Assembly: GCA_938003925.1 (NCBI GenBank)
Contig: CALKWQ010000023.1
Coordinates: 243,799 to 307,798, forward strand
Reading direction: 5' to 3'
DNA from: an uncultured bacterium
GTDB lineage: Bacteria > Patescibacteriota > Patescibacteriia > Patescibacteriales > UBA12465
DNA length: 64,000 nucleotides
This document shows positions 31,579 to 54,289 of the stretch, piece by piece (the first letter of the stretch is position 1; each line of letters starts with the position of its first letter). Position numbers and translations under genes: made by a program. A model generated the notes under the pieces. It saw only the letters and a program-made list of their open reading frames with translations. It made no database searches and was not told where the DNA came from.

Positions 31579-33315
31579 TTATTGGTAATTTTTGACCTTA
31601 TCTAAGACTTCTTGGATAAAATCAGTACGGCTAATTTCTCTGGTAGTCTGAGCTCCGCGGTCACGGACAGCTAAATTGGAAGCGGCTGCTTCTTTGTCGC
31701 CAATGACTAACATATATGGAACCTTGTCATTAACTGCTTTGCGAATCTTATTACCAACCGTTTCGTTGTTTTCATCAATTTCTACCCTGATGCCAGCTGC
31801 TAATAATTCGGCGGCTAAAGTGCGGCAGGCCGTGATATGGGTTTCGGCTACCGAGACTAGTTTTACCTGCACGGGTGAGAGCCACACCGGGAAAGCGCCG
31901 GCGTAATGTTCAATGATGACGCCTAAGAATCTCTCTATTGATCCCAATAGAGCGCGGTGTATCACCACTGGGGTTTTGGCGCTACCATCTACGTCGGTGT
32001 ATTTCAATTCAAAGCGTAATGGTAGTTGGAAGTCCAGCTGAATAGTGGCTAGTTGCCACTGGCGACCAATGGCATCTTTAACCTTAACGTCAATTTTGGG
32101 TCCATAGAAAGCTCCGTCGCCCTCATTAATTTTATATTCCAAGTTGGCGCTAGTTAGCGCTTGTTTCAGGTTAGCTTCGGCTTCATCCCAGACTGATTTT
32201 TCACCCAGAAAATGTTCGGGCCGGGTGGAGAGATGAATTTCATCTATCTGCAGATTAAAGACCTGATAAATCATTTTAATTTTTTCCAACAAAGCTGCAA
32301 TTTCACCTAGAATCTGATCAGGGCGCACAAAGATGTGTGAATCGTCCTGGGATAAGCTGCGCACCCGGGTTAGCCCATGCAGGGTGCCGGATTTTTCGTT
32401 GCGATAGAGAGTGGTGGTTTCAGCTAAACGCAGAGGCAGTTCTTTGTATGATTTAAGGTCGCGCTTGAAGACTAACATATGTGCTGGGCAGTTCATCGGT
32501 TTGATGCCTAAATCGGTATCATCTTCAGCGTGATGCAGGCAGAACATGTCTTCTTGATAGTGATCCCAGTGGCCTGAAACCTTCCACAGCTCGGCGTTGA
32601 GAATTTGCGGTGTGCGCACTTCTTGATAGCCTGGTCCGTAGGAGTGCGTACGGGTAAATTTAATCAGTTCTTGCAACAAGATCATGCCTTTAGGCAGGAA
32701 GAAGGGCATGCCGGGAGCGAATTCATGATTCATAAACAAATCCAACTCTTTGCCTAATTTACGGTGGTCTCTTTTCTCGGCTTCAGCCATCATGTTTAGG
32801 TAATTATCTAGTTCTTCTTTAGTGTCAAAAGCCAAGCCATAGATACGGGTTAACATGGTGCGCTTTTCATCACCTCGCCAATAAGCGCCAGCGAGTTTAT
32901 CCAACTTGAAGCTCCCCGGTTTGATCTCATTAGTGTTGTCTACGTGTGGTCCGCGGCATAAATCAGTGAAACTGCCGACCGTATAAAAACTAACCCGAGT
33001 TTCACCTTGAGTTTTGAGGTCGCTGATGATTTCTTCTTTATATTGATCACCGGCCGCCTTAGCCCAAGCTAGGCCGTCATCAATATCTTTTTCATCGCGA
33101 ATGAAACTCAAATTTTGCTTGGCTAGGTGAGCCATGCGTTTTTCAATATCTTTTAATTGACTTTCACTAATGCTTTCGCCGTTAAAATCGATATCGTAGT
33201 AAAAGCCGTTATCGATGGCGGGGCCGATGGCAAGTTTAGCCTGAGGCCACATTTCTTTGACAGCAGTGGCTAGCAAATGTGCTAGCGAGTGCCTTTTAGT
33301 TTCTAAATTGCTCAT
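31579..33315 (-). CDS. thrS: threonine--tRNA ligase lacking the N-terminal TGS domain
   Basis: Start MSNLETKRHSLAHLLA at 33315. N2/editing-type HxxxH, AIGPAIDNGFYYD, CRGPH, class II motifs (FRNE-type LYRNEKSG, GAFYGPK) and an anticodon-binding C-terminus. The listed 36-codon extension runs over the leader terminator. Confidence 0.95.
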   Translation of the reverse strand: MSNLETKRHSLAHLLATAVKEMWPQAKLAIGPAIDNGFYYDIDFNGESISESQLKDIEKRMAHLAKQNLSFIRDEKDIDDGLAWAKAAGDQYKEEIISDLKTQGETRVSFYTVGSFTDLCRGPHVDNTNEIKPGSFKLDKLAGAYWRGDEKRTMLTRIYGLAFDTKEELDNYLNMMAEAEKRDHRKLGKELDLFMNHEFAPGMPFFLPKGMILLQELIKFTRTHSYGPGYQEVRTPQILNAELWKVSGHWDHYQEDMFCLHHAEDDTDLGIKPMNCPAHMLVFKRDLKSYKELPLRLAETTTLYRNEKSGTLHGLTRVRSLSQDDSHIFVRPDQILGEIAALLEKIKMIYQVFNLQIDEIHLSTRPEHFLGEKSVWDEAEANLKQALTSANLEYKINEGDGAFYGPKIDVKVKDAIGRQWQLATIQLDFQLPLRFELKYTDVDGSAKTPVVIHRALLGSIERFLGVIIEHYAGAFPVWLSPVQVKLVSVAETHITACRTLAAELLAAGIRVEIDENNETVGNKIRKAVNDKVPYMLVIGDKEAAASNLAVRDRGAQTTREISRTDFIQEVLDKVKNYQ

Positions 33316-33345
33316 ATGATTGTTATAAATTAATTTATTAAGTTT

Positions 33346-33545
33346 AAAAAAAGTCCCTTCCTCACAAAAACAGACAATTACTGTTTTTGCCAGGACGGGA
33401 CTCGTATGGTCTCGCGGTTCCACCTAGCTTTCCCGCCGGTGGCGGGACGCTTTCATTTATCACCTTTAGCCGTTAAATTTAACGGGGCTAGCATGGTGGC
33501 TAGTCTTGGGCTTGGTGGGCCCAACAATCAGGCAGGTCTCTTTTA
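33346..33545 (-). promoter_or_regulatory. T-box-like transcription-attenuation leader of thrS
   Basis: Minus strand reads AAGCUAGGUGGAACCGCGAG (plus 33411-33430), matching the T-box core GGUGGNACCGCG. A GC hairpin CCCGCC-acc-GGCGGG lies just upstream. Downstream is a long terminator: GUCCCGUCC ... GGAAGGGAC plus U7 (plus 33346-33402). An AGAGA element sits at the 5' end. Two hairpin loops display ACCA (33506-33524 and 33488-33503). Confidence 0.65.
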
Positions 33546-33580
33546 GCTTAGGTTATTTTAAGTTTTTTGTAAAGCCCACT

Positions 33581-34303
33581 TTAACTTACCTGAGCCATCA
33601 CAGCTACTAGGATATTGTTAGCACCGGCTTGTTTAAGAGCGATGCTGGCCGCTTGAGCGGTGGCGCCAGTGCTGACTATATCATCGACTAGAATAATAGT
33701 TTGTCCGTTCAGTGCGTTTTTTGGACAGACAAAGACGGGCGCTTGTTCTTGTCTCCAGTTATCACTAAGGTGGCTATTGGCCTGTCTGTATTTAATCCTT
33801 TGTAGCTGCTTGCTCCAAGCCCAGCCACTAGCCTGAGAAAGTCCAGTCGCAAGTAGGTCGCTCTGGTTAAAACCACGTTCTCGCTGTCGGCGAGGATGCA
33901 GGGGGATGGGTATAATGTGGGGTGTGGTTATTTGCCAAGCTGGTGGGGCTTGTTGCCAATCTGCCTTCAGGGCGCGCCCTAGCATTTTGCCCAGCTTATA
34001 GCCGATGTCTTTGACGCCGCGATCTTTACAGGCTTTAATGGCTGTCTGTAAGGTGGCTTGCTGATAATTGCCGTAGGCATAGATGCCTGAGAAAGCATAA
34101 TTTTTGGCAACTGTCTGACAGTTGACGCAAAACAAGCCTAGTTTGTTGTTGCGCCCACAGAGAGGGCAACACCTAGGCTTTTTTAGAATGTGGGCACGAC
34201 AGTGGGGACAGAAGCTAGTACCACTGCGGCCACAAGTGGCACAGGCAGTGGGTAGGAGTTGATACTCTAAGTTGCTTAAAAAATTATTAAAAATACTGAA
34301 CAT
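33581..34303 (-). CDS. comFC: ComF-family phosphoribosyltransferase-like competence protein
   Basis: Four-Cys N-terminus (CATCG...CPHC...CCPLCG...CVNC), ERGFNQS, and the PRTase loop IILVDDIVSTGAT. The start is moved to ATG 34303 because a terminator lies at 34311-34340. Confidence 0.85.
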   Translation of the reverse strand: MFSIFNNFLSNLEYQLLPTACATCGRSGTSFCPHCRAHILKKPRCCPLCGRNNKLGLFCVNCQTVAKNYAFSGIYAYGNYQQATLQTAIKACKDRGVKDIGYKLGKMLGRALKADWQQAPPAWQITTPHIIPIPLHPRRQRERGFNQSDLLATGLSQASGWAWSKQLQRIKYRQANSHLSDNWRQEQAPVFVCPKNALNGQTIILVDDIVSTGATAQAASIALKQAGANNILVAVMAQVS

Positions 34304-34310
34304 ATCGTTA

Positions 34311-34340
34311 AACAAAAAACCGGCGTTGGGTGCCGGTTTT
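34311..34340 (-). terminator. rho-independent terminator after the PD40 gene (minus strand)
   Basis: Stem aaaaccggc / gccggtttt followed by T6 on the minus strand. Confidence 0.6.
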
Positions 34341-34356
34341 GATGATCTCAATTTGT

Positions 34357-35800: not shown

Positions 35801-36853
35801 ATGGGTTTATTTTCTTCAGCGGATGACAATTTGTTCCTCGGTATTGATATTGGTGATTCTTCTCTGAAGATGGTGGAGTTAAGGAAGAAGAGCAAAAAAA
35901 TCTATCTTTCCAATTACGCTTTTAGTGAAAACGTGAGCGGGGTTAATTTTACCAAAATTGACGATATTAATTATCTGGCTCAAGCGATTCTGAAAGTGAA
36001 GGCTGAAGCTGGTATCAAGGCTCGTCGTGTGACTGCCTCTTTGCCGACTTTTTCAGTATTTTCCTCCATTATTAACTTGCCCTCGGTGGACAAGAAGAAT
36101 ATGGACTTAGCCGTCGCTGAAGAGGCTAAGAAGGTTATTCCGTTGCCGGTGGAGGAAATGATTCTGGACTGGAAACTTGTTCCAGGTGATGTTAAAGCTG
36201 ATAATAAGGAGGGGGTGCGTGTGTTTCTAACCGGTTCACCTAAAAAGTTAGTACGGCGTTATATTGAGATTTTTCGCCTAGCTAAATTAGAATTAGCTAG
36301 CTTAGAGACCGAAACCTTTTCTTTGGTGCGCGGCTTGATGGGCAATGATCCTTCTACCGTCATGATTGTTGAGATTGGCGCTAACAGTACCGATTTATCC
36401 ATTGTGCAGGAGAGCATTCCCGTATTGAATCGTAGCCTAGAAATATGTGGCGGTACCGTTACGGCAGCTCTAGCTGAAAAATTGGGCTTAAGTTTTGCTC
36501 AGGCCGAACAATTTAAATTTGATCTCAGCGCATCTTTATCCGACGCTTCCAAAGAAGAGCTGCCACAATTGATTGTCAAAACTTTAGCTCCGGTAATTCA
36601 CGAGATTGAATATATGCGGGAATTTTTCCAGAGCAATGCTGGGGGCAAGAAGATTGAAAAAATTATTCTATCTGGCGGCGGAGCTTTGTTAATGAATTTA
36701 GCTGATTACATCTCGCATCACCTTAATTTACAAGTTATTATCGGCGATCCTTTTAGCCGTATTGCCTATCCTGCGGAAATGAAGCCTATTATTGCCGAGG
36801 TTGGACCTAAGTTGGCGGTAGCGGCTGGCTTAGCGCTGCGTGAGATTTCTTAA
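35801..36853 (+). CDS. pilM: type IV pilus assembly protein PilM (actin-like ATPase fold)
   Basis: GIDIGDSSLKMVEL phosphate-1 motif, 350 aa, and a C-terminal SGGGA motif. PilN/PilO-like genes follow. Confidence 0.85.
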   Translation: MGLFSSADDNLFLGIDIGDSSLKMVELRKKSKKIYLSNYAFSENVSGVNFTKIDDINYLAQAILKVKAEAGIKARRVTASLPTFSVFSSIINLPSVDKKNMDLAVAEEAKKVIPLPVEEMILDWKLVPGDVKADNKEGVRVFLTGSPKKLVRRYIEIFRLAKLELASLETETFSLVRGLMGNDPSTVMIVEIGANSTDLSIVQESIPVLNRSLEICGGTVTAALAEKLGLSFAQAEQFKFDLSASLSDASKEELPQLIVKTLAPVIHEIEYMREFFQSNAGGKKIEKIILSGGGALLMNLADYISHHLNLQVIIGDPFSRIAYPAEMKPIIAEVGPKLAVAAGLALREIS

Positions 36854-36864
36854 TTTCTACTGAT

Positions 36865-37518
36865 GTGCTTAATTTTAAGGCCAAACTAAATAATTCTACC
36901 CTCAAAAGTCGCGCTGACTCCAGCCAGAACCCTAAGGTGTTGGAGGTCAACTTGATTAAGAATGAGATGAGGGTGGATTTTGATGTGCGTAAGCACCTGG
37001 GCACGCTGTTATTTTCTTTGGCAGTGACGGCTTTGTTCGTGGCAGAAATATATTTTGGCCTTAATTGGTGGTCGGCTTATGAAAATGAGCGCGTTTTGGC
37101 AACTGAAGCTAAATTCAATCAGGTCTCTAAAGAAATCAAAGACATGAAGAGCGAGTCTGATCAAATCCTAGCCTTCAAGCAAAGAGTTGATTTAGCTGAT
37201 TCTTTATTGGCTAATCACATTTATTGGACCAATTTTTTCGCCTGGTTGGAAAAAAATACTCTTAGCACCGTTAACTACAATGGTTTTTCCGGCAAGATAG
37301 ATGGTAATTACGACTTGCAAGCTTCGGCCGACACTTTCCGCGATATCAGCTGGCAAACCAGAGCCTTATTAGCTGATCCTTCAGTTCTGTCGGTTAAGGT
37401 AGATAGCGGGAGTTCTCAATTAGCTGGCGATGCCGCTCAGGATAATCCCGACGGTAGTATTAGTTTTAGCGTTAACCTCAAGATTAATCCCCAATTATTT
37501 AAGGCCAATAACCAATAA
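36865..37518 (+). CDS. pilN: PilN-like bitopic pilus alignment protein
   Basis: N-terminal VNLIK (compare the PilN INLLP PilM-binding motif), one TM helix, a coiled coil and a ferredoxin-like tail. GTG start. Confidence 0.55.
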   Translation: MLNFKAKLNNSTLKSRADSSQNPKVLEVNLIKNEMRVDFDVRKHLGTLLFSLAVTALFVAEIYFGLNWWSAYENERVLATEAKFNQVSKEIKDMKSESDQILAFKQRVDLADSLLANHIYWTNFFAWLEKNTLSTVNYNGFSGKIDGNYDLQASADTFRDISWQTRALLADPSVLSVKVDSGSSQLAGDAAQDNPDGSISFSVNLKINPQLFKANNQ

Positions 37519-37526
37519 GCATTTTT

Positions 37527-38153
37527 ATGCCCGTAGCTGCACCTGTAAAAAACTCCAGAAACGATCTTAACTCTTTTTTGAACGCCAATTTTAATTTGGT
37601 AATTGTGTTTTTGGTGATTATTGTATTAGTGGCCTCTTATTTCTTTCTAATTAAGCCTAAGTTTGAACTCACTTTGGTGGCTATTCGTGATAATACGGCT
37701 CAGCAGGAACAATTTTATCAAAATCAACGCCAGAAGCTAGCTGATTTACAAGCAGCCGCCAACTTATACCGCCAAGTCAGTGAAGCGGATATTAAGAAGG
37801 TTAATACTATTTTGCCTAATGAATACGCGAAAGAGAGATTGTTTGGTGAACTTGAGGACGTATTGCTGCAACAAGGTTTGATTTTAAACAACATTAAATT
37901 AACTAAGTCCGGTGAAGATGTTGGTGGCGAGCCTATGGCGGCCAAAGATGGGCGCGTTTTAGATATCCCTAACGCTGATAGAGTGGGCACTATTAGAGCC
38001 GAAGTGTCTTTATCGTCGACGGATTACGCCGCTTTACGCAATCTACTGCCAGTTCTAGAAAATCACTTACAGCTGATAGATATCCAGTCGCTAGATTTTA
38101 GCGCCGCTGCTAAGACGGTTAATTTAGTGTTTTTAACCTATTATTTTAAATAA
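37527..38153 (+). CDS. pilO: PilO-like bitopic pilus alignment protein
   Basis: One TM helix, a long coiled coil and a C-terminal alpha/beta domain. Called from its position after pilM-pilN. Confidence 0.5.
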   Translation: MPVAAPVKNSRNDLNSFLNANFNLVIVFLVIIVLVASYFFLIKPKFELTLVAIRDNTAQQEQFYQNQRQKLADLQAAANLYRQVSEADIKKVNTILPNEYAKERLFGELEDVLLQQGLILNNIKLTKSGEDVGGEPMAAKDGRVLDIPNADRVGTIRAEVSLSSTDYAALRNLLPVLENHLQLIDIQSLDFSAAAKTVNLVFLTYYFK

Positions 38154-38158
38154 TCCCT

Positions 38159-38539
38159 ATGTCATCTCGCCGTAACGCCAGCATCTACATACTCGTCGGA
38201 CTTTTGCTGATTGTCGGCATTTTGATTTTTGCTTTTAAGGACCGTTTATTGTCTTATGTCAGTGTTCGCGTTTTTGGCGAGGCGCCAACGGGGGTGGAGG
38301 CGCCACTGAAAGCCTCGGCAGCTAGCGTCATTAATTTGCAGATTTTAGACAACAACCGTTTTCGTCAGCTAGAAAATAAGGTGCTTTATTTTGACTTTAA
38401 TACGGTGGGCAAACCGGTGGTCAATCCTGACTATAGCGGCAAAATTCCCGCTCCTTCTTGGCAGCCAGTTTATTTAGGTAATGCTAATCCTTTTTTAGTT
38501 CCAGTTAAGGCGGCGCCAGACTCCGAAGAGGTAAAATAA
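38159..38539 (+). CDS. small membrane-anchored pilus-locus protein (126 aa)
   Basis: N-terminal TM helix. Located between the pilO-like gene and pilB. Confidence 0.45.
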   Translation: MSSRRNASIYILVGLLLIVGILIFAFKDRLLSYVSVRVFGEAPTGVEAPLKASAASVINLQILDNNRFRQLENKVLYFDFNTVGKPVVNPDYSGKIPAPSWQPVYLGNANPFLVPVKAAPDSEEVK

Positions 38540-38544
38540 TAATT

Positions 38545-40302
38545 ATGGATCAACAAGACCAATTACTGCGCATTTTGCAGGAAAAACAATGGCTGAGCGC
38601 AGAGCAGGCCGCAGATATTAAAAATCAAGCTTTGGCCGCTAAGATGGAGCTGCCAAGTTTTTTATTATCCAAAAAATTGGTGACCGAAGAGCAGTTGGCT
38701 GAGGCTAAGGCCGCTGTTTACAATCTACCTTATTACATCCATACCGACGAGCCGGTCAGTGAAGACGCTTTAAATTTTTTACCCGAAGAAATCGCCCGTA
38801 CTTATAACATGGTTTGTTTCTCACGGGAAAATAAGGCTATCAAAATCGGGATGGTGGAGCCGAATTTGAAAGCCATGGAGGCTGTGAATTTTTTAGCCTT
38901 GGATGAGAAATTGACGGTGCAGTATTATTTGCTCTCGGCCGCTAGCTGGCAGAAAGTTTTTAAACAATATCAAAAAATTGAAGAAGAAATTTCCAGCGCT
39001 TTGGAAGTTAAGGCTAAAGAAGAGAGTGATGATGTTGTTTCCGTAAAAGCTGAAGATTCTTCCATGGTGGATGACGAAGATATCAATAGCGCGCCGGTAT
39101 CGCGCATTGTGTCCGTGGTCATTCGCCATGCCGTCGAAGCTCGAGCCAGTGATATTCATATTGAGCCTTTTGATAAAGAGAGTCGGGTGCGCTATCGCAT
39201 CGACGGTATTTTACATACTTCCTTGACCTTGCCCAAGAGTATTCATAACGCTATTATCGCTCGTGTGAAGGTTATGGCCAAATTGAAGTTGGACGAAACT
39301 CGCATTCCTCAAGACGGCCGTATTCGTTTGCTGGTGAGCGGTCGGGCGGTGGACTTCCGTATCTCCACCTTACCTTTAGCTAGTCAAGAAAAAGTGGTAA
39401 TGCGTATTTTAGATACTGCCAAAGGCGCACCGTCTTTAAATGATCTAGGTTTTAATTCCAATTCTTTGCGGGTGATTAATAATGCGGCCCTAAAAACGAG
39501 CGGTATCATCTTGGTTACCGGTCCGACCGGTTCTGGTAAAACCACCACCCTCTATTCCTTATTGAATATTTTAAATCAAGAGGGTGTCAATATCTCTACT
39601 TTAGAAGATCCGATTGAGTATGAAATGAAAGGCATTAATCAGTCCCAGGTTCGTCCTAAGGTCGGTTTTACTTTTGCCAGCGGCTTGCGTTCACTGTTGC
39701 GTCAGGATCCAAATATTATCATGGTCGGAGAAATTCGTGATGAAGAAACAGCAGAGTTGTCTATCCACGCTTCTTTGACCGGACACTTAGTGGTTTCCAC
39801 TTTGCATACTAACGACGCTCTGGGAGCAGTGTTCCGTTTGTTGGACATGAAGATTGAGCGTTTTTTACTCGCGTCTACCCTTAAAACAGTGGTGGCTCAA
39901 CGTTTAGCTCGGCGTTTGTGTGACAAGTGTAAAAAAGAAGTAGTTTTACCACCGGCTGAACTAGCTGCTTTGTCTGCCGATATTAAAGACGTGCCAGCCA
40001 GTATTTTGCAAGAAGAATTGCCGGGTTTGACTGATACTAATAACTTGAGTGCTTATAAATTTTATCAACCAGTCGGTTGCAGTCATTGTGAAAACACCGG
40101 TTTCACTGGTCGCGTCGCTGTTTCTGAAGTTATTGACATCAACGAACAGTTGAAAGAGATGATTAATCAGGGTGATAAGAATTTTAATCTTGACGCCGTG
40201 AAGAAGAGCCAAGACTTTATTTCTATCAAACAAGACGGAGCGATTAAAGTTTTGAAGGGAATAACGACTATTGAAGAAGTTTTGCGCGTCATTGAAAGTT
40301 AA
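38545..40302 (+). CDS. pilB: type IV pilus assembly ATPase PilB (GspE family)
   Basis: Walker A GPTGSGKTTT, Asp box, Walker B IIMVGEIRD, His box TGHLVVSTLHTN and a tetracysteine motif (CDKC...CSHC). Confidence 0.95.
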   Translation: MDQQDQLLRILQEKQWLSAEQAADIKNQALAAKMELPSFLLSKKLVTEEQLAEAKAAVYNLPYYIHTDEPVSEDALNFLPEEIARTYNMVCFSRENKAIKIGMVEPNLKAMEAVNFLALDEKLTVQYYLLSAASWQKVFKQYQKIEEEISSALEVKAKEESDDVVSVKAEDSSMVDDEDINSAPVSRIVSVVIRHAVEARASDIHIEPFDKESRVRYRIDGILHTSLTLPKSIHNAIIARVKVMAKLKLDETRIPQDGRIRLLVSGRAVDFRISTLPLASQEKVVMRILDTAKGAPSLNDLGFNSNSLRVINNAALKTSGIILVTGPTGSGKTTTLYSLLNILNQEGVNISTLEDPIEYEMKGINQSQVRPKVGFTFASGLRSLLRQDPNIIMVGEIRDEETAELSIHASLTGHLVVSTLHTNDALGAVFRLLDMKIERFLLASTLKTVVAQRLARRLCDKCKKEVVLPPAELAALSADIKDVPASILQEELPGLTDTNNLSAYKFYQPVGCSHCENTGFTGRVAVSEVIDINEQLKEMINQGDKNFNLDAVKKSQDFISIKQDGAIKVLKGITTIEEVLRVIES

Positions 40303-40307
40303 AATGT

Positions 40308-41516
40308 ATGCCAATTTTTAAATATAAGGCCAAGAATAACACGACTGGTCGTTTAAAGTCAGAGATGACGGTCGGGGTCAACGAAAATGATGTGGCCGCT
40401 CGCTTGCGCCGGCGTGATTTTAGTATTATCTCTTTGACCGAGGCTAGCAGTAGTTGGGAGGCTAAAATTCACTTGTTTTTAAACCCCATTAGCGTGAAGG
40501 ATTTAGTGATCTTTTCACGCCAATTTTCCGTGATGATTGCCGCTAATGTTCCGGTAGTGGAATCCTTATTGATTTTAATCGATCAGACCGATAATTTTTC
40601 CTTAAAAAACATGATTGCTGATATCGCCTTTGAAGTCGATAGCGGCTCCTTATTATCCGATGCCTTTGCCAGGCGTCCCAAAATATTCTCTGAATTCTTT
40701 GTAAATATCATTAAAAGCGGTGAAACTTCAGGTAAGTTAGACGAAGTGCTGACCTATTTAGCTGATGAAACTGAGAAGAGTTACGACATGGCAGCTAAAA
40801 TCAAGGGCGCTATGATTTATCCGGTTTTTATTTTGGTCGGCTTGACTGGGGTGGGTGTGGTGTTAATGGTTTACATCATTCCTAATTTAACCGCCATGCT
40901 GACGGAGTCTGGTATGGAGCTGCCCATTTCTACCCGCGTGATTATTGCGATATCTAATTTCATGAAAGATTATTTGATTCTGTTGGGATTTATCGTCGCC
41001 GGCTTGGTATTTGGCGCCCGTTATTATTTGAAAACAACGTTAGGTCGTTATCAGTTAGATAAAGTAAAATTAAAGATGCCTATTTTTGGGAAACTATTTA
41101 AATATATCTATTTGATGCGTTTTACGCGATCTCTGTCCACTTTGCTTAAAGGTGGAGTGACCATTACCCGCGGCTTAGAGATTACCTCTAATGTGGTCGG
41201 TAATGTGGTGTATAGAGATTTGTTGCTGGAGACTTTAAGTTCAATTAATGATGGCAATCCTTTATCTACAGTGCTGGAAGCCAGTACGGATGTACCTAAA
41301 ATGGTGCCGCAGATGATCAGCGTCGGTGAACGCACTGGTCGCTTGGATTCAGTTTTAGACAAAATTACTGACTTTTATGGCCGAGAAGTGAGCGCGATGC
41401 TAGCCAATATGAGCGCTTTGATGGAGCCATTAATCATGGTCGTGATGGGTGTCGGCGTGGGTATCATGGTAGCAGCCGTCTTAATGCCGATGTATAATAT
41501 GGCCAGTCAGTTTTAA
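40308..41516 (+). CDS. pilC: type IV pilus platform protein PilC (GspF family)
   Basis: Duplicated T2SF domain, three TM helices, GE.SG.L and GERTG.L motifs. 402 aa. Confidence 0.9.
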   Translation: MPIFKYKAKNNTTGRLKSEMTVGVNENDVAARLRRRDFSIISLTEASSSWEAKIHLFLNPISVKDLVIFSRQFSVMIAANVPVVESLLILIDQTDNFSLKNMIADIAFEVDSGSLLSDAFARRPKIFSEFFVNIIKSGETSGKLDEVLTYLADETEKSYDMAAKIKGAMIYPVFILVGLTGVGVVLMVYIIPNLTAMLTESGMELPISTRVIIAISNFMKDYLILLGFIVAGLVFGARYYLKTTLGRYQLDKVKLKMPIFGKLFKYIYLMRFTRSLSTLLKGGVTITRGLEITSNVVGNVVYRDLLLETLSSINDGNPLSTVLEASTDVPKMVPQMISVGERTGRLDSVLDKITDFYGREVSAMLANMSALMEPLIMVVMGVGVGIMVAAVLMPMYNMASQF

Positions 41517-47780: not shown

Positions 47781-50700
47781 GTGCAGAGAAAATTAATTGC
47801 GACAAAAAAAATTAGCTGGGCACCCAAGCTGGGGTTGCTGTTTTTTGTTATGGGTGGGCTGTTTTTCGTTCTCGGTATTCAGCCGTCTCAAGCCGCTTTA
47901 GCTAATTTATACAACAAAGCTACAAGTAGCACTTTAGCGGCTTATGAGTGGAATAATCTGTTGTCCGATTTTGTTACTAAGAATAATGGCGGCGATAGAT
48001 TGGATGGCTACTTCAGTATTAATACGGCGACTTCTTCCACCTATGCTTTAGATATCAATGGTGCTTTGCGCGCCACCAACTTAACAGGCGCTCTGTCTGG
48101 CACCCTGAACGCTGGTAATGTTTCTACCGGTGCCTTCGGTTTAAATACCGGTGGCGGTAATTATAATTTTCCTGCCAATATCGGTATCGGTATCGGTACC
48201 GCCACTCCGGCCTCTATCATCACTCTCGCCAACAATCGCTGGGTGTCTGCTTTAAATAGCACCGGCACTGGTTATGTGAACATGTTTAGAGTGAACGCTA
48301 ACGATGAGATTGAAGTGGGGGGAGCTTTAAACATCGGTCAATTCCAGTTTGCTGCCGATAGCGGTTTTAACACTTTTGTAGATATGCCGGTGACTAATGC
48401 TCCGGCGGCTGGCACTATCATGGGCTACACCATGAAGGTGGATGGGGACAATATTTTAAATGTCTATTCTGAAGCTAATGGTAGCGGCGGTATTCAAAAT
48501 CGTCGCATTGGTATTGGTACTAGTACCCCTGCTTTTACTCTGGATGTTAATGGCATTATCAATGCTTCCGCTCTTTATGTTAATGGCGCTCCTTATATCG
48601 GTAGTCAGTGGACTACTAACGGCACGAGCGTGTATTACAACACTGGTAATGTCGGTATCGGCACTACTACTCCTATCGCCACTTTAGACGTGAACGGGTT
48701 GATTAAGATGCGGACTGCTTTGATTACCGCCAATGAGGATGTAATTAACAAAGGTTATTTGGACTCAGCTTTAGCCAGTACCACCGCCCAAATTATTACC
48801 CAGGTTGCCACCAGTAGTTTCTGGCAGGGCAGCATGGCGGGCAGTATTTATAATGCTAACTCTGGTAGCGTTGGGATTGGGACGACGAATCCGAGTGGGA
48901 AGCTGCATATTACTGATGCTAGTAATACAACGAGGTATGCGTCCTTTAGTTCTACTGGTTTGTTAACCATCAATTTTCAAGATGGTACTGGTAGCATTCC
49001 TTTTCTAACCTTGCAGAATCCTTATGGCAATATGGGTGTTTCTTCGCACATATTGTTTAAGTCTGGTTACGCTGGCACTACTTACGTTGATTCTGGTCGT
49101 ATCACCTTGGGTCATGAAGTTGATTGGACTAGCACGGCTGCCACTAGGGACTCTTATCTCGCTCTTTTTACCTCTCTAGACGGTGCGTTGGGAGAAAAGA
49201 TGAGGATTACGAGCGCTGGTAATGTGGGGATTGGAGTAACTAACCCTATTCATAAGCTTCAAATCAGTTCCGGTAATTTATCTTTAAGTGATGGTAATTT
49301 TATTGATTGGGGTAACGGTAGCACAAGAATTCTTTCAATAACCTCTGTTCCAAATAACAGAATTATGGGATTTGAGACTTGGAACAGCACAACTGGTAGA
49401 GCGGAAAGGATGAGAATAGATGGAGTTGGCAACGTCGGCATCGGGACTACCAACCCCACCGCCAAACTATACGTCAATGGTACTTCCATATTTAATGATA
49501 TTGCCACCTTCACTCAACCAGTAGTAGTGGCCACCCCTATTTTAGGTCCTCATGCTGCTACTAAGAGTTACGTAGATTCTACTATTGCTTCTGCCACTTC
49601 CAGCATTACTCTATGGGGCGGAACAATTGGGGGTAATGTTTGGAATTTAAATTCTGGTAACGTTGGGATTGGGACGACTAGCCCTGGTATTAGCAAATTA
49701 AGAATTGAACATAACGCCTGGACGACATATGGATTAACTTTAAGCAATACCTATACCGGCGGTCGGTCTTGGAATTTGGGCGATGGATTAGCGGCCATGG
49801 GCATGTTTTCTATCAGAGATGAAACCGCTGGTCAGGTCAGGTTGACTATTAATGGCAATGGTAACGTCGGCATTGGTACTACCACTCCTGGCACTAAATT
49901 GACGGTGGTTGGATCAGGTAATTACAGTATTGATGCTGGTAATTATCGCGTCGGCAATGTTGCTACGCCGGTAGCTGCTTTGGATGCGGTTAATAAATCA
50001 TATCTTGATTCCGCGGTTGGCACCGCACAAACCGCCTTTTGGAACATTAACGGTTCTAACCTCTACGCCTCTTCAACCAGTTGGAATGTCGGAGTCGGAA
50101 CCACCGCCCCAGATTCACGCCTTCATATTGTAGGCACCGGCCAACCTCTTTTGCATATTCAAAACTCTAATGGAACCGATGGAATAACCGCCGGAATTTT
50201 ATTTGGAGTTACGAATGCGACTGATTATCAGCAAGCAGGTATATTTTTTGAAAGACTTGGTGGTTCAGCTGAGGGCAGTTTGCATTTCGCCACTAAAAAT
50301 GGTGGCGCTGGTAACGCAACTAAGGCAAATGCAAGGATGACAATAAACGCTAGTGGAAATGTTGGGATTGGAACAACCAATCCAGATGCCAAGCTACAAG
50401 TACAAGGAACTTTAAAGTTACAGAATGTTGTTTCTTCTTCACCTGATACTAATTTTAGAAGAATGATTAATGTTGCTTCGTATAATGGTGGAGGCACTTA
50501 TCGAACTGGTATATTAACTGTTAAATTACCTTCTCCTTTAGCTCATTCAATGGCTAAAATCAAAATTAGTGGTTGGAGTTATGGTCAGGCTTGGGATGTG
50601 ATTGTGTCTGGTTATTTAAATACTACTCAATGGACGCAAGTCGGAGGCACAGTGGTTACAGGTAATCCTCCTTTTAATACCGATCAAATTCGCTTAGTAG

Positions 50701-53700
50701 CTGATAGTGCTTCAGATACTTTCTATATCTTATTAGGCGATGCGGCAACTACTTATGGATATTATGCTAGTATCGGTGTTGATGTAGATAGTATTTACTC
50801 AAACAATCTGCCTTCTACTGGTTGGGATATTTATATTGCTGCTAGTGATCCGTCTTTTGATTATGTAACTACTCCCGCCTCGTCTTTGTATGGTAGTCAT
50901 GGTGCAGATATTAATAACGGTAATGTTTATATTAATGATGCCGTTATTACCTCTGGCACTCCTAAGGCTGCTATTACCAAAGAATACCTCACCTCTTCCT
51001 TAGAAGCTTTTAATTCAGAAACTAATCTATGGAAGTTAAATGGTTCTAACCTCTACGCTTCTACTACTACTTGGAATGTGGGTATTGGTACTAGTAGCCC
51101 AGCCACTAAATTAGATGTCTGGGGTAATATTTATATTAATTCGGCTACACATAATAACACTACTACTCTAGCCTTTGCTACTAATGGTAGTCCCTATCAC
51201 CAGATATTTTCTAATCGGCAAACCGGCGAATTCTCTATAAGGGCTGGCGTTGGCGGCAGTGGCCACTATCTAACCTTTGGTTCAGGTGATGGTTCGGAAA
51301 AAATGAGAATTACTACTACTGGCAACGTCGGGATTGGCACTAACAATCCGGCTGGCTTATTGGAACTGTATAAGGCTGGTTCTAATGCTAACTTAAAGCT
51401 CTATGCTTTTAGCAGCTCTGCTTATGATTCCCAATTGCAATTTTCTGCCAACACTAATGCTGCCGTGGAATATAGCGCTGGTCTAGATAATAATGATAAT
51501 AATTTTAAGATTTACTCTGGTGAAAATGTAAGAGGGACTAATGAGTTCGTAATTAATCCATCGGGCAACGTCGGCATCGGCACCACCAACCCCACCGCCA
51601 AACTATACGTCAATGGTACTTCCATATTTAATGATATTGCCACCTTCACTCAACCAGTAGTAGTGGCCACCCCTATTTTAGGTCCTCATGCTGCTACTAA
51701 GAGTTACGTAGATTCTACTATTGCTTCTGCCACTTCCAGCATTACTCTATGGGGCGGAACAATTGGGGGTAATGTTTGGAATTTAAATTCTGGTAACGTT
51801 GGGATTGGGACGACTAATGCCCTAGAAAAGCTAGATTTAAGAGACGGTAATTTGTATATTTCTGATTCAGATTTGGCAACGAACAGTGCTGGTGGTGCTA
51901 TAAAATTTGGTAGACCCGATGGTTATGCCTCTAATTGGTTGGCATCAATAGGCTCTTATACTACTACTGGCTACGATCGCATAGGTTTAACTTTTAATAC
52001 TTCTTTCGGGACTTCTCAAGAGCGAATAAGAATTACGCCAGAAGGTAATGTTGGGATTGGAACAACAAATCCGACAACGAAGTTGCATATAGAAAATGGA
52101 GTGATAAGGGCAAACAATATAGTAGCCGTTGGCAGTAGTGCCGCCCACCCTACGGGAATTGGATCTTATATAGAACTTTATATGTTGGGTGAAGTGGGAA
52201 GAATTTTGCCTTATGATGGTGCTAGTTATAAAGATTTGGCTATTGGTGATTGGAATGGAGGTAATCCGAATATAATGTTGAAAGTGGGCGGTAATGTCGG
52301 TATTGGAAATGGGTCTCCTTCTAATAAATTGAGTGTTGCGGGTAGTGCAGACTTTTCCGGTAACGTCGGTATCGGGACTACCAACCCCACCGCCAAACTA
52401 TACGTCAATGGTACTTCCATATTTAATGATATTGCCACCTTCACTCAACCAGTAGTAGTGGCCACCCCTATTTTAGGTCCTCATGCCGCTACTAAGAGTT
52501 ACGTAGATTCCACTATTGCTTCCGCCACTTCCAGTATCGCCACTCTCTGGGGTGGAACCGTTGGAGGACATATCTGGAATTTAAATTCAGGTAATGTTGG
52601 TATTGGTGTGGCCAGTCCGGAATCATTATTTGAAGTAGAGCGATCTGCTACTGGGACCGTGGCTACCTTTGACGTTAATACGACTAATAGAGCGACTGTC
52701 CAGTTGAGCGTATTTGATAATTATGCTCAGCTGCAAAGTTACGGTCGCGGGTCTTCTAGCGGTTACTTGTCTATTAATCCTCTAGGTAATAATGTCGGTA
52801 TCGGGACTACTAACCCGGGTTCTTACAAGCTAAACGTTAATGGCAGCACTAATATCAGTGGCAGTTTAAATGTCACTGGCACAACTACCGCCGGAGCCTT
52901 TGTTGGCCCAGTGGTAGGCACAATTAATGCTCGCAACGTTTCTTCCGGGGCTTTTGGCGCTGATGCTGGCGGAGGTAATTTTAGCTTTCCGGCTAATGTT
53001 GGAATTGGGACGACGAATCCTGGTTCTAGGCTGACTATTAATGGGGTTGGGGCTTCTAGTACACCTTTAACCTTGTTGCAGGTGTTTAATATGATTCCTT
53101 ATGCTACAGGCAATGGTCTTGGCGCAGCTCGAATTGAAATTGGTCACGGCACTTTGCATGGTTATATAGAAAGTGCTGCTAATTCTGAGAATAATAGCGC
53201 TGATGGTTATATGGCTTTTGGTACCCGTCGTCCTACTAATAATGTGACTGAGGCAATGAGGATAGATCAATCTGGTAATATCGGAATTGGGACCACTACT
53301 CCGGATGCAAAATTATCCGTTAATGGCGGAGCTACTTTTAATACTGGCGCCGGACTCGCAATTGGTAATGTTGGCAGTTATAATAAATTAATAACTTATT
53401 CTGCTGGTCCCGTTTTTCGTATTTTTACTGGTGGTAGTTACGGTAGTTTTGGCGCTGGCAGTGCTTCTATCGGAGCTTCGTATGCTGCCATATCTTCGCC
53501 TGCGGGCGGGTTAATTGTAGAGGGTAACGTCGGTATCGGCACTTCTAATCCTGGCGCATATCGCTTGAAGGTGGCAGGAGATATGGCTGTTACTGGCACC
53601 TTACAGACTCAGACTGGTTCCGACTTTGCGGAAGAATTTAGTGTAGATTCAGTAATTTTACCAGGTACGGTGGTGGTGATGGCTGATAACGGGCACAAAT

Positions 53701-54005
53701 CGGTTCGAGTCTCAACTGCAGCCTATGATCGCAAGGTTGTAGGTATTGTGTCCGATAATCCCTCTATTATTGCTGGTAGAATTGAAAGCGGACAAAAGGT
53801 TGTGGTGGCTATGATGGGGGTAGTTTCAGTTAATGTCACTAGTGCTAATGGCAAAATTGAAAAGGGGGATTTATTGACTTCTTCTAACCTGCCTGGCTAT
53901 GCCATGAAGGTGACTGAGTTTGCGCCGGGAACTGTAATTGGCAAAGCCTTGGAAGATCTAGTGGGAAAGAAAGGGAAGATTAAGGTGTTGGTAAATTTGC
54001 AGTAA
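47781..54005 (+). CDS. giant (2074 aa) secreted fibre/adhesin-like protein built from about 20 GNVGIGTTxPxxKLxVxG modules
   Basis: GTG start and an N-terminal signal anchor. The G-N-V-G-I-G-T-T-x-P...KL.V.G motif recurs about 20 times and is also seen in phage tail-fibre-like proteins. A distinct C-terminal roughly 150-aa domain follows (GSDFAEEF...VVGIVSDNPSII...GDLLTSS..PGYAMK...GTVIGKALE). Confidence 0.85.
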   Translation: MQRKLIATKKISWAPKLGLLFFVMGGLFFVLGIQPSQAALANLYNKATSSTLAAYEWNNLLSDFVTKNNGGDRLDGYFSINTATSSTYALDINGALRATNLTGALSGTLNAGNVSTGAFGLNTGGGNYNFPANIGIGIGTATPASIITLANNRWVSALNSTGTGYVNMFRVNANDEIEVGGALNIGQFQFAADSGFNTFVDMPVTNAPAAGTIMGYTMKVDGDNILNVYSEANGSGGIQNRRIGIGTSTPAFTLDVNGIINASALYVNGAPYIGSQWTTNGTSVYYNTGNVGIGTTTPIATLDVNGLIKMRTALITANEDVINKGYLDSALASTTAQIITQVATSSFWQGSMAGSIYNANSGSVGIGTTNPSGKLHITDASNTTRYASFSSTGLLTINFQDGTGSIPFLTLQNPYGNMGVSSHILFKSGYAGTTYVDSGRITLGHEVDWTSTAATRDSYLALFTSLDGALGEKMRITSAGNVGIGVTNPIHKLQISSGNLSLSDGNFIDWGNGSTRILSITSVPNNRIMGFETWNSTTGRAERMRIDGVGNVGIGTTNPTAKLYVNGTSIFNDIATFTQPVVVATPILGPHAATKSYVDSTIASATSSITLWGGTIGGNVWNLNSGNVGIGTTSPGISKLRIEHNAWTTYGLTLSNTYTGGRSWNLGDGLAAMGMFSIRDETAGQVRLTINGNGNVGIGTTTPGTKLTVVGSGNYSIDAGNYRVGNVATPVAALDAVNKSYLDSAVGTAQTAFWNINGSNLYASSTSWNVGVGTTAPDSRLHIVGTGQPLLHIQNSNGTDGITAGILFGVTNATDYQQAGIFFERLGGSAEGSLHFATKNGGAGNATKANARMTINASGNVGIGTTNPDAKLQVQGTLKLQNVVSSSPDTNFRRMINVASYNGGGTYRTGILTVKLPSPLAHSMAKIKISGWSYGQAWDVIVSGYLNTTQWTQVGGTVVTGNPPFNTDQIRLVADSASDTFYILLGDAATTYGYYASIGVDVDSIYSNNLPSTGWDIYIAASDPSFDYVTTPASSLYGSHGADINNGNVYINDAVITSGTPKAAITKEYLTSSLEAFNSETNLWKLNGSNLYASTTTWNVGIGTSSPATKLDVWGNIYINSATHNNTTTLAFATNGSPYHQIFSNRQTGEFSIRAGVGGSGHYLTFGSGDGSEKMRITTTGNVGIGTNNPAGLLELYKAGSNANLKLYAFSSSAYDSQLQFSANTNAAVEYSAGLDNNDNNFKIYSGENVRGTNEFVINPSGNVGIGTTNPTAKLYVNGTSIFNDIATFTQPVVVATPILGPHAATKSYVDSTIASATSSITLWGGTIGGNVWNLNSGNVGIGTTNALEKLDLRDGNLYISDSDLATNSAGGAIKFGRPDGYASNWLASIGSYTTTGYDRIGLTFNTSFGTSQERIRITPEGNVGIGTTNPTTKLHIENGVIRANNIVAVGSSAAHPTGIGSYIELYMLGEVGRILPYDGASYKDLAIGDWNGGNPNIMLKVGGNVGIGNGSPSNKLSVAGSADFSGNVGIGTTNPTAKLYVNGTSIFNDIATFTQPVVVATPILGPHAATKSYVDSTIASATSSIATLWGGTVGGHIWNLNSGNVGIGVASPESLFEVERSATGTVATFDVNTTNRATVQLSVFDNYAQLQSYGRGSSSGYLSINPLGNNVGIGTTNPGSYKLNVNGSTNISGSLNVTGTTTAGAFVGPVVGTINARNVSSGAFGADAGGGNFSFPANVGIGTTNPGSRLTINGVGASSTPLTLLQVFNMIPYATGNGLGAARIEIGHGTLHGYIESAANSENNSADGYMAFGTRRPTNNVTEAMRIDQSGNIGIGTTTPDAKLSVNGGATFNTGAGLAIGNVGSYNKLITYSAGPVFRIFTGGSYGSFGAGSASIGASYAAISSPAGGLIVEGNVGIGTSNPGAYRLKVAGDMAVTGTLQTQTGSDFAEEFSVDSVILPGTVVVMADNGHKSVRVSTAAYDRKVVGIVSDNPSIIAGRIESGQKVVVAMMGVVSVNVTSANGKIEKGDLLTSSNLPGYAMKVTEFAPGTVIGKALEDLVGKKGKIKVLVNLQ
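49428..49679 (+). repeat. 252-bp cassette, copy A (encodes GNVGIGTTNPTAKLYVNGTSIFNDIATFTQPVVVATPILGPHAATKSYVDSTIASATSSITLWGGTIGGNVWNLNSGNVGIGTT)
   Basis: It differs from copy B at only two synonymous sites (49445 and 49448). 49449-49679 reads identical to 51585-51815. Confidence 0.9.
51564..51815 (+). repeat. 252-bp cassette, copy B
   Basis: See copy A. The flanks of A and B are unrelated at the DNA level. Confidence 0.9.
52359..52607 (+). repeat. cassette copy C (mosaic)
   Basis: The 5' roughly 140 bp are near-identical to A and B. The 3' roughly 110 bp carry substitutions (catgccgct, gattccact, an extra Ala codon, ctctggggtggaac) that match copy D in the second giant gene. Confidence 0.8.
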
Positions 54006-54014
54006 ATTCTTTAC

Positions 54015-54260
54015 AAATGAATATCCCTGTGTCCGCTTCTACCACTCTTTAGAGGCATTAACAGTCAAGGGGTCCGCGCCAACAAAAACCGCTAATGCCG
54101 GTGGTGTCGGATGACTTGATTTTATCCATCACTAGTCATCCCCCGAAGGGGCGACTAGCAAGAGAAAATCCCAGCGATCAAGCTGGGACTCATTGTCAAG
54201 AAAACAGCGTGCGGCCGTCAGGTACGTACGTTCTAGGAGCGGTCACAAGGATATTCATTT
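54015..54260 (+). ncRNA. candidate RT-associated structured non-coding RNA (retron msr/msd-like or DRT-type template RNA)
   Basis: 54015-54038 pairs with 54237-54260: 22 of 24 positions, including aaatgaatatcc.tgtg against cacaaggatattcattt. The enclosed roughly 200 nt are visibly more GC-rich than the flanks. They contain hairpins 54054-54060/54093-54099, 54132-54158 (ctagtc..cccc gaa gggg..gactag) and 54169-54188 (tcccagc/gctggga). There is no ORF. A 6-bp hairpin plus T5 (54267-54287) lies just before the RT ATG. Confidence 0.55.
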
Positions 54261-54289
54261 TTTAGTAGGGGCTTAATTGCCCTTTTTGT

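Follow-up and report, generated by a model that had tools for sequence, protein, structure and literature searches.

Introduction

In a 64-kb stretch of DNA from an uncultured member of the Patescibacteriota (contig CALKWQ010000023.1, positions 243,799 to 307,798; hereafter the window), the threonyl-tRNA synthetase (ThrRS) gene thrS is preceded by an intergenic stretch (33580-33316 on the minus strand) that lies between the end of a comF-like gene at 33581 and the thrS ATG at 33315. An earlier note, made from the letters of the sequence, had proposed that this DNA encodes a compact, non-canonical T-box in a genome of the candidate phyla radiation (CPR). The locus thus raises two questions: is the RNA upstream of thrS a T-box, and if so, how would such a short leader read its tRNA?

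Here we report that the T-box leader of thrS corresponds to window positions 33346-33534 on the minus strand (coordinates of this strand are given from high to low in the text, i.e., 5' to 3'). The compact layout found there recurs upstream of thrS in about 120 CPR leaders, with the specifier ACC-A-A and the discriminator-pairing UGGA invariant. We conclude, with a probability of roughly 0.85, that the leader is a transcription-attenuating T-box that senses uncharged tRNA-Thr(GGU) and controls thrS. The T-box proposal of the earlier note was therefore borne out, including its non-canonical character: the Rfam T-box family RF00230 matches the 3' half only.

Results

The 3' half of the leader is a recognizable T-box

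The thrS product of the window is 88% identical to a Patescibacteria ThrRS over residues 1-577 and contains the Pfam domains tRNA_SAD, tRNA-synt_2b, and HGTP_anticodon. Its nearest relatives (69 to 88% identity) are encoded by metagenome-assembled genomes (MAGs) labeled Patescibacteria or Candidatus Falkowbacteria, in the Parcubacteria group of the CPR. The host genome is a Falkowbacteria-like CPR genome, in line with the CPR-like genome surmised from the letters. The 251-nt leader folds more stably than 200/200 dinucleotide shuffles (z = -4.3), and its minimum free energy (MFE) fold contains the two hairpins with ACC in their loops, the GC-rich hairpin, and the terminator hairpin.

On the minus strand, GGUGGAACCGCG at 33424-33413 is the sole exact match to the T-box core GGTGGNACCGCG across the window. 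The longer string AGGUGGAACCGCG (33425-33413), also unique in the window, fits the conserved T-box sequence (A)GGGUGGNACCGCG, which forms the 7-nt bulge UGGNACC between antiterminator helices A1 and A2. In the window, A1 consists of 33428-33423 paired with 33394-33389 and A2 of 33415-33409 paired with 33401-33395, while the bulge, UGGAACC, occupies 33422-33416 and its UGGA 33422-33419. This core, already pointed out in the earlier note, is conserved and covarying in the relatives: 90% of the antiterminator cells are paired, with compensatory changes at five of the six A1 pairs. An A.C mismatch in the middle of A2 (33412 with 33398 in the window) was kept in 13 of 14 distinct sequences and is an A-U pair only in L016 (L numbers designate the loci compared); the mismatch would weaken the antiterminator and may tune its dependence on tRNA.

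An extra insertion in the A2 loop, probably a hairpin, was observed in the compact thrS leaders L119, L146, L147, L112, and L150 (alignment columns ~160-190). These insertions recall the lineage-specific insertions of staphylococcal glyS T-boxes.

Upstream of the core, the GC-rich hairpin that had been read as Stem III-like (33447-33431, UCCCGCC/GGCGGGA) has five covarying pairs according to RNAalifold in 35 contiguous leaders. It is followed by AA in 86/86 leaders, and the five bases before it are R, R, G, N, and G in most of the 56 leaders in which Stem III was delineated. RRRNG-Stem III-AA is the motif quoted for canonical T-boxes (PMC7778990), and the window leader has both flanks of it.

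Downstream, the long two-helix terminator described in the earlier note also stood up to scrutiny. The hairpin (33401-33353) is built of two tiers, an outer and an inner helix, and its U7 tract (33352-33346) stops 30 nt short of the thrS ATG. Positions 33401-33389 are common to both structures, the 3' arm of the antiterminator being the 5' arm of the terminator, so that the two are mutually exclusive, a hallmark of T-boxes. The energies calculated for the window are -28.7 kcal/mol for the terminator versus -11.0 kcal/mol for the antiterminator; with so large a difference, termination would be the default state. Of 20 relatives examined, 19 have an overlapping hairpin (-21 to -35 kcal/mol) followed by U5 to U8, and their terminators end 22 to 242 nt before the start codon without overlapping the start region. 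A generic promoter/terminator scan reported neither a promoter for the leader nor the long terminator; both were seen by folding and in the comparison with relatives.

No match to RF00230 was found on the window at the gathering score (93 bits). With permissive filters, a search of 451 nt returned 26.2 bits (E = 5e-4), with the alignment confined to model positions 149-216, i.e., Stem III and the antiterminator; nothing in the window aligned with positions 1-148, on the Stem I side. The Rfam check suggested in the earlier note therefore gave a divided answer: "no significant hit" was formally the outcome, and yet the 3' half did match the family. In a control set of 19 non-CPR thrS loci, Firmicutes included, eight gave full-length RF00230 matches of 95 to 134 bits. 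The low score of the window leader is explained by a 5' domain that is built differently. The 3' half is a recognizable T-box, and the 5' half lies outside the family model. The T-box database TBDB was based on RF00230 and on a class II model whose use was limited to Actinobacteria and to those T-boxes found by RF00230 in which Stem I is truncated (PMC7778990); with this model basis the compact CPR form would escape TBDB.

A covarying hairpin presents the threonine codon ACC

The 5' half has a layout that is shared by the relatives. From 5' to 3' it comprises a closing helix (P0), the strand GAUUG, a short Stem I with the loop Y-N-A-C-C-A-A, one or two variable hairpins, the strand C-Y-A-A, and the 3' strand of P0; the whole P0-closed decoding module measures about 45 to 100 nt. 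When the module of the window was folded in isolation, the MFE fold recovered P0, Stem I, and both variable hairpins (P2 and P3). The Stem I loop, CCACCAA, spans 33518-33512, with ACC at 33516-33514 followed by A-A. As expected of a T-box, the specifier codon matches the regulated gene and the next base is a purine (ACC-A with thrS).

Among the CPR loci compared, the compact leader was found upstream of thrS in L001-L004, L006-L016, and L018-L021; the last of these, L021, is a Paceibacterota MAG with a ThrRS only 52% identical to that of the window. L005 (ThrRS 79% identical) carries, at 2090-2330, a compact leader without GAUUG, located ~780 nt upstream of thrS and before an extra 209-aa open reading frame (ORF).

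Covariation was assessed in an alignment of 20 sequences in fixed register, from which the variable insert was removed. In P0 plus Stem I, 87.5% of cells were paired versus 56.7 +/- 2.1 in shuffles, and the covariation score was 0.904 versus 0.281, with 0/500 shuffles reaching 0.904. Sliding the register by one column reduced the pairing of P0 and Stem I to ~40%. Stem I alone had 95% of its cells paired and compensatory changes at six of six pairs, and the inner three P0 pairs were 95 to 100% paired, each of them represented by four to six pair types. P0 was examined further in a permutation test with 86 non-redundant leaders, in which the contiguous pairing adjoining the AA motif was scored: a leader's own strands gave a mean of 4.38 versus 2.76 +/- 0.11 for swapped strands (z ~15; maximum of 200 permutations, 3.09). 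RNAalifold, applied to 35 real contiguous sequences, recovered Stem I, Stem III, and A1 independently; P0 was not recovered because MAFFT was unable to align across the variable insert.

The strongest evidence that the codon itself matters comes from a metagenome scan with the pattern GATTG-N11-AA-N{69,99}-GGTGGNACCGCGAGA, in which the codon, the pairing of the stem, and the discriminator-pairing base were all left free. The scan returned 116 stretches, of which 100 were genuine and carried ACC together with UGGA (99 of these with at least 5/6 stem pairs). The remaining 16 were chance matches with another triplet, all but one with one to four stem pairs and 12 with a base other than A in UGGN. 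The downstream ORF was examined in the first 80 loci, and wherever the contig of a genuine match reached the next gene, that gene encoded ThrRS. Within the reach of the scan pattern, the compact architecture is thus specific to thrS.

These results bear directly on the alternative that survives best, namely that the leader senses the tRNA's 3' terminus but does not draw its specificity from the ACC loop, the hairpin being a folding scaffold and decoding being relaxed or located elsewhere. Such a scenario would fit with the fact that the canonical decoding aids, the elbow platform and the Stem II S-turn, are missing and that a 3-bp contact alone is weak. However, the 20 genome-derived leaders all keep ACC-A-A while every pair of the stem under it varies, ACC is present in each of the 100 genuine matches from the codon-free scan, and conservation of another Thr codon was seen nowhere in the leader. 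We therefore regard a mere scaffold as quite improbable and take the ACC loop to be the specifier of the T-box.

The junction strands flanking the hairpins are also conserved. In the 20 genome-derived leaders, alignment columns A8, U9, and G11 of GAUUG are invariant, as are A34 and A35 of CYAA, and C32 is at least 90% conserved; the metagenome set is uninformative as to GAUUG since this motif was imposed in the scan. N-C-Y-A-A precedes the 3' strand of P0, in the form CCUAA in 49 of 86 leaders. GAUUG/CYAA was considered as a standard K-turn and rejected, as in our reading its sequence misfits the K-turn consensus.

The insert between Stem I and CYAA is far less constrained: of 80 leaders, 36 have a single hairpin there and 42 have two. 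The first abuts Stem I with 0-nt spacing in 60/80 and is variable in loop and sequence, with no conservation of ACC; the second, in relatives, is often short and capped by a GNRA loop. The earlier note had described two hairpins displaying ACC. Both are present, and the one with the loop CCACCAA is the specifier; the other, with CACCAU, is a variable structural hairpin, and P2 was consequently rejected as a second specifier or two-tRNA sensor. The CCGUUA of P3, which resembles an F-box, was likewise discarded as one (only 4 of 86 leaders have this motif). The AGAGA element that had been noted at the 5' end does exist (33541-33537), but it is not the AG bulge of a Stem I, as it lacks conservation and coincides with the predicted start of transcription. 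The relatives have neither AGAGA nor the ACC of P2, which are thus chance features of the window sequence.

The promoter leaves no room for a long Stem I

A sigma-70-like promoter lies immediately upstream of the module. In the window, the end of the -10 hexamer is 15 nt from GAUUG, and the predicted transcript start (~33538) falls inside AGAGA. TTTACA or TTGACA followed, after a 16- to 18-nt spacer, by TAnnnT was found upstream of 99/110 non-redundant leaders versus ~5 expected from shuffles, with the promoter ending 10 to 32 nt before GAUUG in these 99. The silence of the generic promoter scan is attributable to a -35/-10 pair that falls under its thresholds. With the promoter so close to GAUUG, transcripts would begin a few bases before P0, without room for a hidden long Stem I.

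Promoter position is one of several observations that speak to whether the leader could be an ordinary class I T-box whose long Stem I has diverged beyond alignment by the covariance model, the short hairpins being its parts. The canonical 3' half is compatible with this, as is a Gracilibacteria thrS leader (L022) that matches the full-length model at 49 bits only, indicating that CPR T-boxes can diverge and yet stay canonical. Nevertheless, the decoding module is small and closed by P0, there is no upstream space, and the codon is central in a 7-nt terminal loop rather than on the 3' side of an internal loop. Furthermore, the inner hairpins vary in sequence and number, and no long Stem I, elbow platform (AG bulge, distal loop), Stem II S-turn, or F-box is conserved among the relatives. 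As even the permissive Rfam search aligned model positions 149-216 only, a diverged class I Stem I is very improbable, and the leader is better described as a T-box with a compact decoding module of its own.

CPR tRNA-Thr(GGU) has the discriminator base predicted by UGGA

From UGGA, the earlier note had predicted a tRNA-Thr with discriminator U and had suggested checking the tRNA-Thr genes for a GGU anticodon and this base. No tRNA-Thr gene was found in the window, where the only tRNAs are tRNA-Arg and tRNA-Ser and no aminoacyl-tRNA synthetase gene other than thrS was detected, nor in ~0.7 Mb of thrS-flanking CPR DNA. No EF-Tu gene was seen in the CPR loci checked. CPR loci anchored on GlyRS or on ribosomal protein L33 revealed a cluster that recurs in several CPR lineages, tRNA-Thr(UGU)-tRNA-Tyr(GUA)-tRNA-Thr(GGU)-rpmG(L33)-tRNA-Trp(CCA), in L207 (6329-6924), L209, L211-L214, and L215-L218, with tRNA-Thr(UGU) missing in L215-L218. 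The cluster resembles the thrU-tyrU-glyT-thrT arrangement of Escherichia coli. No tRNA-Thr was found near glyS on the contig that bears the tRNA-Thr cluster, and none of the 12 candidates of the L33 search lay on a contig known to bear a compact leader.

U73 was present in four distinct CPR tRNA-Thr(GGU) genes (L207; L209/210; L211-214; L215-218) and also in two distinct tRNA-Thr(UGU) genes, with the adjacent tRNA-Tyr and tRNA-Trp having A73 and G73, respectively; most of these tRNA-Thr genes do not encode CCA. Both the anticodon and the discriminator base are thus as predicted, in related CPR contigs rather than in the genome of the window, and UGGN is complementary to N73 as in other T-boxes. 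Outside the CPR, UGGA was likewise found in 21/22 canonical thrS T-boxes, from Firmicutes and other loci. The UGGA/U73 match is informative because bacterial tRNA-Thr does not use position 73 as an identity element (PMC9976931).

Protein-bound operators and relics account poorly for the leader

Another conceivable role for Stem I is that of an anticodon-arm mimic bound by ThrRS, in an autoregulation akin to that of the E. coli thrS operator, with the T-box-like 3' part being secondary. The hairpin does match an anticodon stem-loop in its dimensions, with 6 bp and a loop of 7 nt that begins with a pyrimidine and ends in A-A (positions 6-7), and a mimic of this kind regulates E. coli thrS (PMC9976931). 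Its loop, however, displays the codon ACC and not the NGU anticodon-like triplet recognized by ThrRS (G35, U36; PMC9976931). The E. coli-type operator has an NGU loop overlapping the start region, whereas the Y-N-ACC-A-A loop is located ~190 nt upstream of the start codon, away from the ribosome-binding site. In addition, the UGGA discriminator and the overlapping terminator are conserved and covarying, and a protein-binding operator would need neither. We give this explanation hardly any credence, and retain tRNA as the probable ligand of the leader.

There is scarcely more to be said for a simple attenuator (constitutive or dependent on a protein) or for a relic in decay, whose T-box likeness would have no present function: although some CPR relatives (L017, L030, and L033) have no leader at all, the elements are kept by compensatory change in about 120 leaders from diverse CPR lineages, at ThrRS identities down to 52%, which indicates purifying selection on structure. 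Leader-peptide attenuation was also rejected, since the 13-codon ORF in the window leader falls in a variable region and is not conserved.

Features and neighborhood of the locus

The coordinates of the leader elements and of the regulated gene are collected in Table 1.

Table 1 Elements of the thrS leader and the gene downstream, in window coordinates
Feature	Position	Strand	Basis
-35-like hexamer TTTACA	33568..33573	-	read directly; relatives
-10-like hexamer TAAGCT, 17 nt after the -35	33545..33550	-	read directly; relatives
P0 closing helix, 5' strand UGCCU	33530..33534	-	pairs with 33465-33461
Junction strand GAUUG	33525..33529	-	conservation
Stem I specifier hairpin, UUGGGC-CCACCAA-GCCCAA (6-bp stem, 7-nt loop)	33506..33524	-	covariation
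P2, variable junction hairpin, CUAGC-CACCAU-GCUAG	33488..33503	-	relatives
P3, second variable junction hairpin (CCGUUAAAUUUAACGG)	33470..33485	-	relatives
Junction strand C-Y-A-A (CUAA)	33466..33469	-	conservation
P0 closing helix, 3' strand AGGUG	33461..33465	-	covariation; fold
A-rich linker with the purine string AAGCG (RRRNG) at its 3' end	33448..33460	-	comparison with relatives
Stem III, UCCCGCC-ACC-GGCGGGA, then AA at 33430-33429	33431..33447	-	Rfam alignment; covariation
Antiterminator	33389..33428	-	Rfam alignment to model positions 149-216; covariation
Intrinsic terminator, hairpin 33401-33353 plus U7 33352-33346	33346..33401	-	folding; relatives
thrS (threonyl-tRNA synthetase, 578 aa), regulated gene	31579..33315	-	homology; Pfam

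A GTG inside the T-box was considered as an alternative thrS start (ORF 31579-33423, minus strand, 614 aa) and rejected: that frame reads through the terminator, and homology shows the start to be the ATG at 33315. Gene callers could over-extend thrS to this GTG and thereby mask the leader.

The ORF directly upstream of thrS (33581-34351, minus strand) was named comF-like from its translation and gave no Pfam match at E <= 1e-5. Other neighbors of thrS are of the competence/pilus type, with T2SSE/PilB-like, T2SSF/PilC-like, and TraG/VirB4-like ATPase genes (35801-41516 and 4510-6399, plus strand). Such gene content is commonly reported in CPR genomes. Further along (47781-55498, plus strand), a 2074-aa ORF with ~18 diverged repeats (core GGTAAYGTYGGNATYGGNAC, peptide GNVGIGT..NP) is followed by a reverse-transcriptase ORF (RVT_1, 54290-55498). 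This locus was considered as a diversity-generating retroelement but is not an obvious one, as a near-identical template/variable repeat pair was not found adjoining the reverse-transcriptase gene.

Discussion

Proposed mechanism

The leader has the mechanistic hallmarks of a T-box; it has no canonical Stem I and stays under the Rfam threshold. How it might operate can be sketched from its elements. The transcript would start a few bases before P0, and the decoding module would fold into a three- or four-way junction that P0 closes, GAUUG and CYAA line, and one or two variable hairpins fill. Stem I would present ACC at positions 3-5 of a 7-nt loop shaped like an anticodon loop, and this loop could pair with the GGU anticodon of tRNA-Thr in a loop-loop kissing contact, the A after ACC being placed either for stacking on the codon-anticodon contact or for pairing with U33. 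The discriminator domain would then capture a free tRNA 3' end through pairing of UGGA with 5'-UCCA-3' (U73 plus CCA). Only uncharged tRNA would stabilize the weak antiterminator (-11 kcal/mol) against a terminator (-29 kcal/mol) with which it has an arm in common, so that RNA polymerase would enter thrS only when charged tRNA-Thr is scarce. A docking role of GAUUG/CYAA or of P2/P3 is conceivable.

A number of points weigh against this interpretation. Transcriptional T-boxes are held to need the elbow platform of Stem I for fast tRNA capture (PMC7583486), and in the absence of both that platform and a Stem II S-turn, a 3-bp loop-loop contact may need other help to be strong and fast enough. 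Position 2 of the Stem I loop is U in only ~58% of leaders, so that a tRNA-like U-turn is not guaranteed. None of the 20 CPR thrS loci passes RF00230, and the window scores below gathering. The genes with U73 are from related Parcubacteria-group contigs, none of them the genome of the window or a contig shown to bear the leader. The 3' register of P0 was initially picked by complementarity, a bias that the permutation and slide controls offset only partly. Finally, that the leader binds tRNA, that the two loops kiss, that the junction has a role, and that read-through depends on tRNA is what we infer, and for binding and antitermination in particular this tempers the conclusion.

Taken as a whole, the balance tips slightly toward a previously undescribed class, a minimal transcriptional T-box of the CPR (Parcubacteria group) with kissing-loop decoding and a P0-closed junction and without an elbow platform or Stem II/IIA/B clamp. 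A full-text literature search combining T-box with Patescibacteria, candidate phyla radiation, or Parcubacteria found no report of one; its coverage was incomplete and an earlier description is possible.

T-boxes serve as the model for how one structured RNA reads another, and a widespread and strongly conserved thrS leader in which a terminal-loop specifier is coupled to an intrinsic terminator, with none of the known compensating domains, is a direct challenge to the Stem I platform rule. If the interpretation is true, contact with the tRNA elbow is not a general requirement of cotranscriptional tRNA sensing. If the mechanism holds, it would also extend T-box regulation to the Patescibacteria, where regulatory RNAs are almost unstudied, and supply a naturally minimal scaffold (~190 nt) on which structural and single-molecule studies could be done and tRNA-responsive switches engineered. 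It would furthermore suggest a reductive route from canonical to compact T-boxes within a lineage of reduced genomes. It would also mean that standard annotation (Rfam gathering score, TBDB) misses a whole class and that T-box censuses of uncultured phyla are too low.

Comparison with known systems

Like the CPR element, the thrS leaders of Firmicutes combine thrS with ACC plus a purine, UGGA, RRRNG-Stem III-AA, and an A1/bulge/A2 antiterminator opposed to a terminator. Canonical T-boxes differ in having a long Stem I, a K-turn, an internal Specifier Loop with S-turn, an AG-bulge/distal-loop platform, a Stem II S-turn, and a Stem IIA/B pseudoknot or F-box, all of which the CPR element lacks. 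Its codon instead occupies positions 3-5 of a terminal loop of 7 nt, inside a junction closed by P0.

The canonical form is itself represented in the CPR. The Gracilibacteria thrS leader (L022:2599-2887) matches RF00230 over its full length at 49.3 bits (E = 3e-8; gathering, 93) and has a canonical long Stem I, an AGAGA bulge, an internal GAA-A-ACC-A specifier, and a CGUUA F-box. A canonical thrS T-box therefore coexists with the compact form in the CPR, and the latter is probably derived.

The compact thrS T-box may be part of a wider CPR trend. A minimal glyS T-box was noticed at L118:7003-7202 (minus strand) and L198:9835-10000 (plus strand), both Parcubacteria contigs that also bear a compact thrS leader. 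It has a lone 7- to 8-bp hairpin with a 9-nt terminal loop, AGAUC-GGC-A (GGC-A at the 3' side), and a 20-nt linker, followed by RRRNG-Stem III-AA, a UGGAACC bulge, and a terminator with U7 to U8 directly before GlyRS. Stem III of L118 and that of L198 differ in a fully compensatory manner, the form being known from these two sequences; it is sporadic and was absent upstream of glyS in six other CPR loci (L204, L207, L211, L219, L220, and L221). In Moranbacteria, L201:9318-9500 (identical to L202 and L203) has the core GGGUGGAACCGCG and a terminator upstream of a small PDDEXK_3 ORF that precedes glyS. In one possible fold, which resembles the thrS form, a closing helix encloses a 7-nt loop (UUGGCAG) that contains GGC-A. 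With only one distinct sequence among the three copies and an MFE fold that departs from the hand fold, the decoding fold is ambiguous and was not used as evidence.

Among systems of other kinds, the E. coli thrS operator resembles the CPR leader in being a thrS leader with hairpins shaped like anticodon stem-loops (PMC9976931). That operator displays an anticodon-like triplet, binds the synthetase, and blocks the ribosome, whereas the CPR leader displays the complementary codon and has a discriminator and a terminator. The geometry proposed for the contact between Stem I and the tRNA, two 7-nt loops with their three central bases paired, is that of tRNA-tRNA anticodon-anticodon complexes. The latter have no regulatory role, and position 2 of the CPR loop is not always U.

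The glyQS T-box is, like the CPR element, transcriptional and made up only of Stem I, linker, Stem III, and antiterminator (PMC7583486). It nonetheless keeps a long Stem I with the elbow platform, as well as an all-G-C codon-anticodon pairing, and the CPR thrS element has neither.

The closest counterpart of the 5' half is found in the ultrashort (US) Stem I T-boxes of ileS in Mycobacterium smegmatis and M. tuberculosis, in which a short Stem I helix carries a terminal-loop Specifier and there is no elbow platform (bioRxiv 10.1101/2023.02.28.530422; PMC7583486), as in the CPR element. The US class is translational, with a Shine-Dalgarno sequestrator, limited to ileS, and actinobacterial, and in it a conserved Stem II S-turn together with a Stem IIA/B pseudoknot makes up for the lost elbow contact by clamping the codon-anticodon duplex (PMC7583486; bioRxiv 10.1101/2023.02.28.530422). 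Of the four traits that mark this class, the CPR element has one, the terminal-loop specifier, and lacks the sequestrator, ileS, and Stem II/IIA/B. It is distinguished by an intrinsic terminator with a U-tract, by thrS and ACC, and by variable hairpins in place of Stem II/IIA/B; P0 and the GAUUG/CYAA junction strands, not described for the US class, are its own. A non-homologous substitute for the function that Stem II and IIA/B perform in the US T-boxes is conceivable in the CPR leader.

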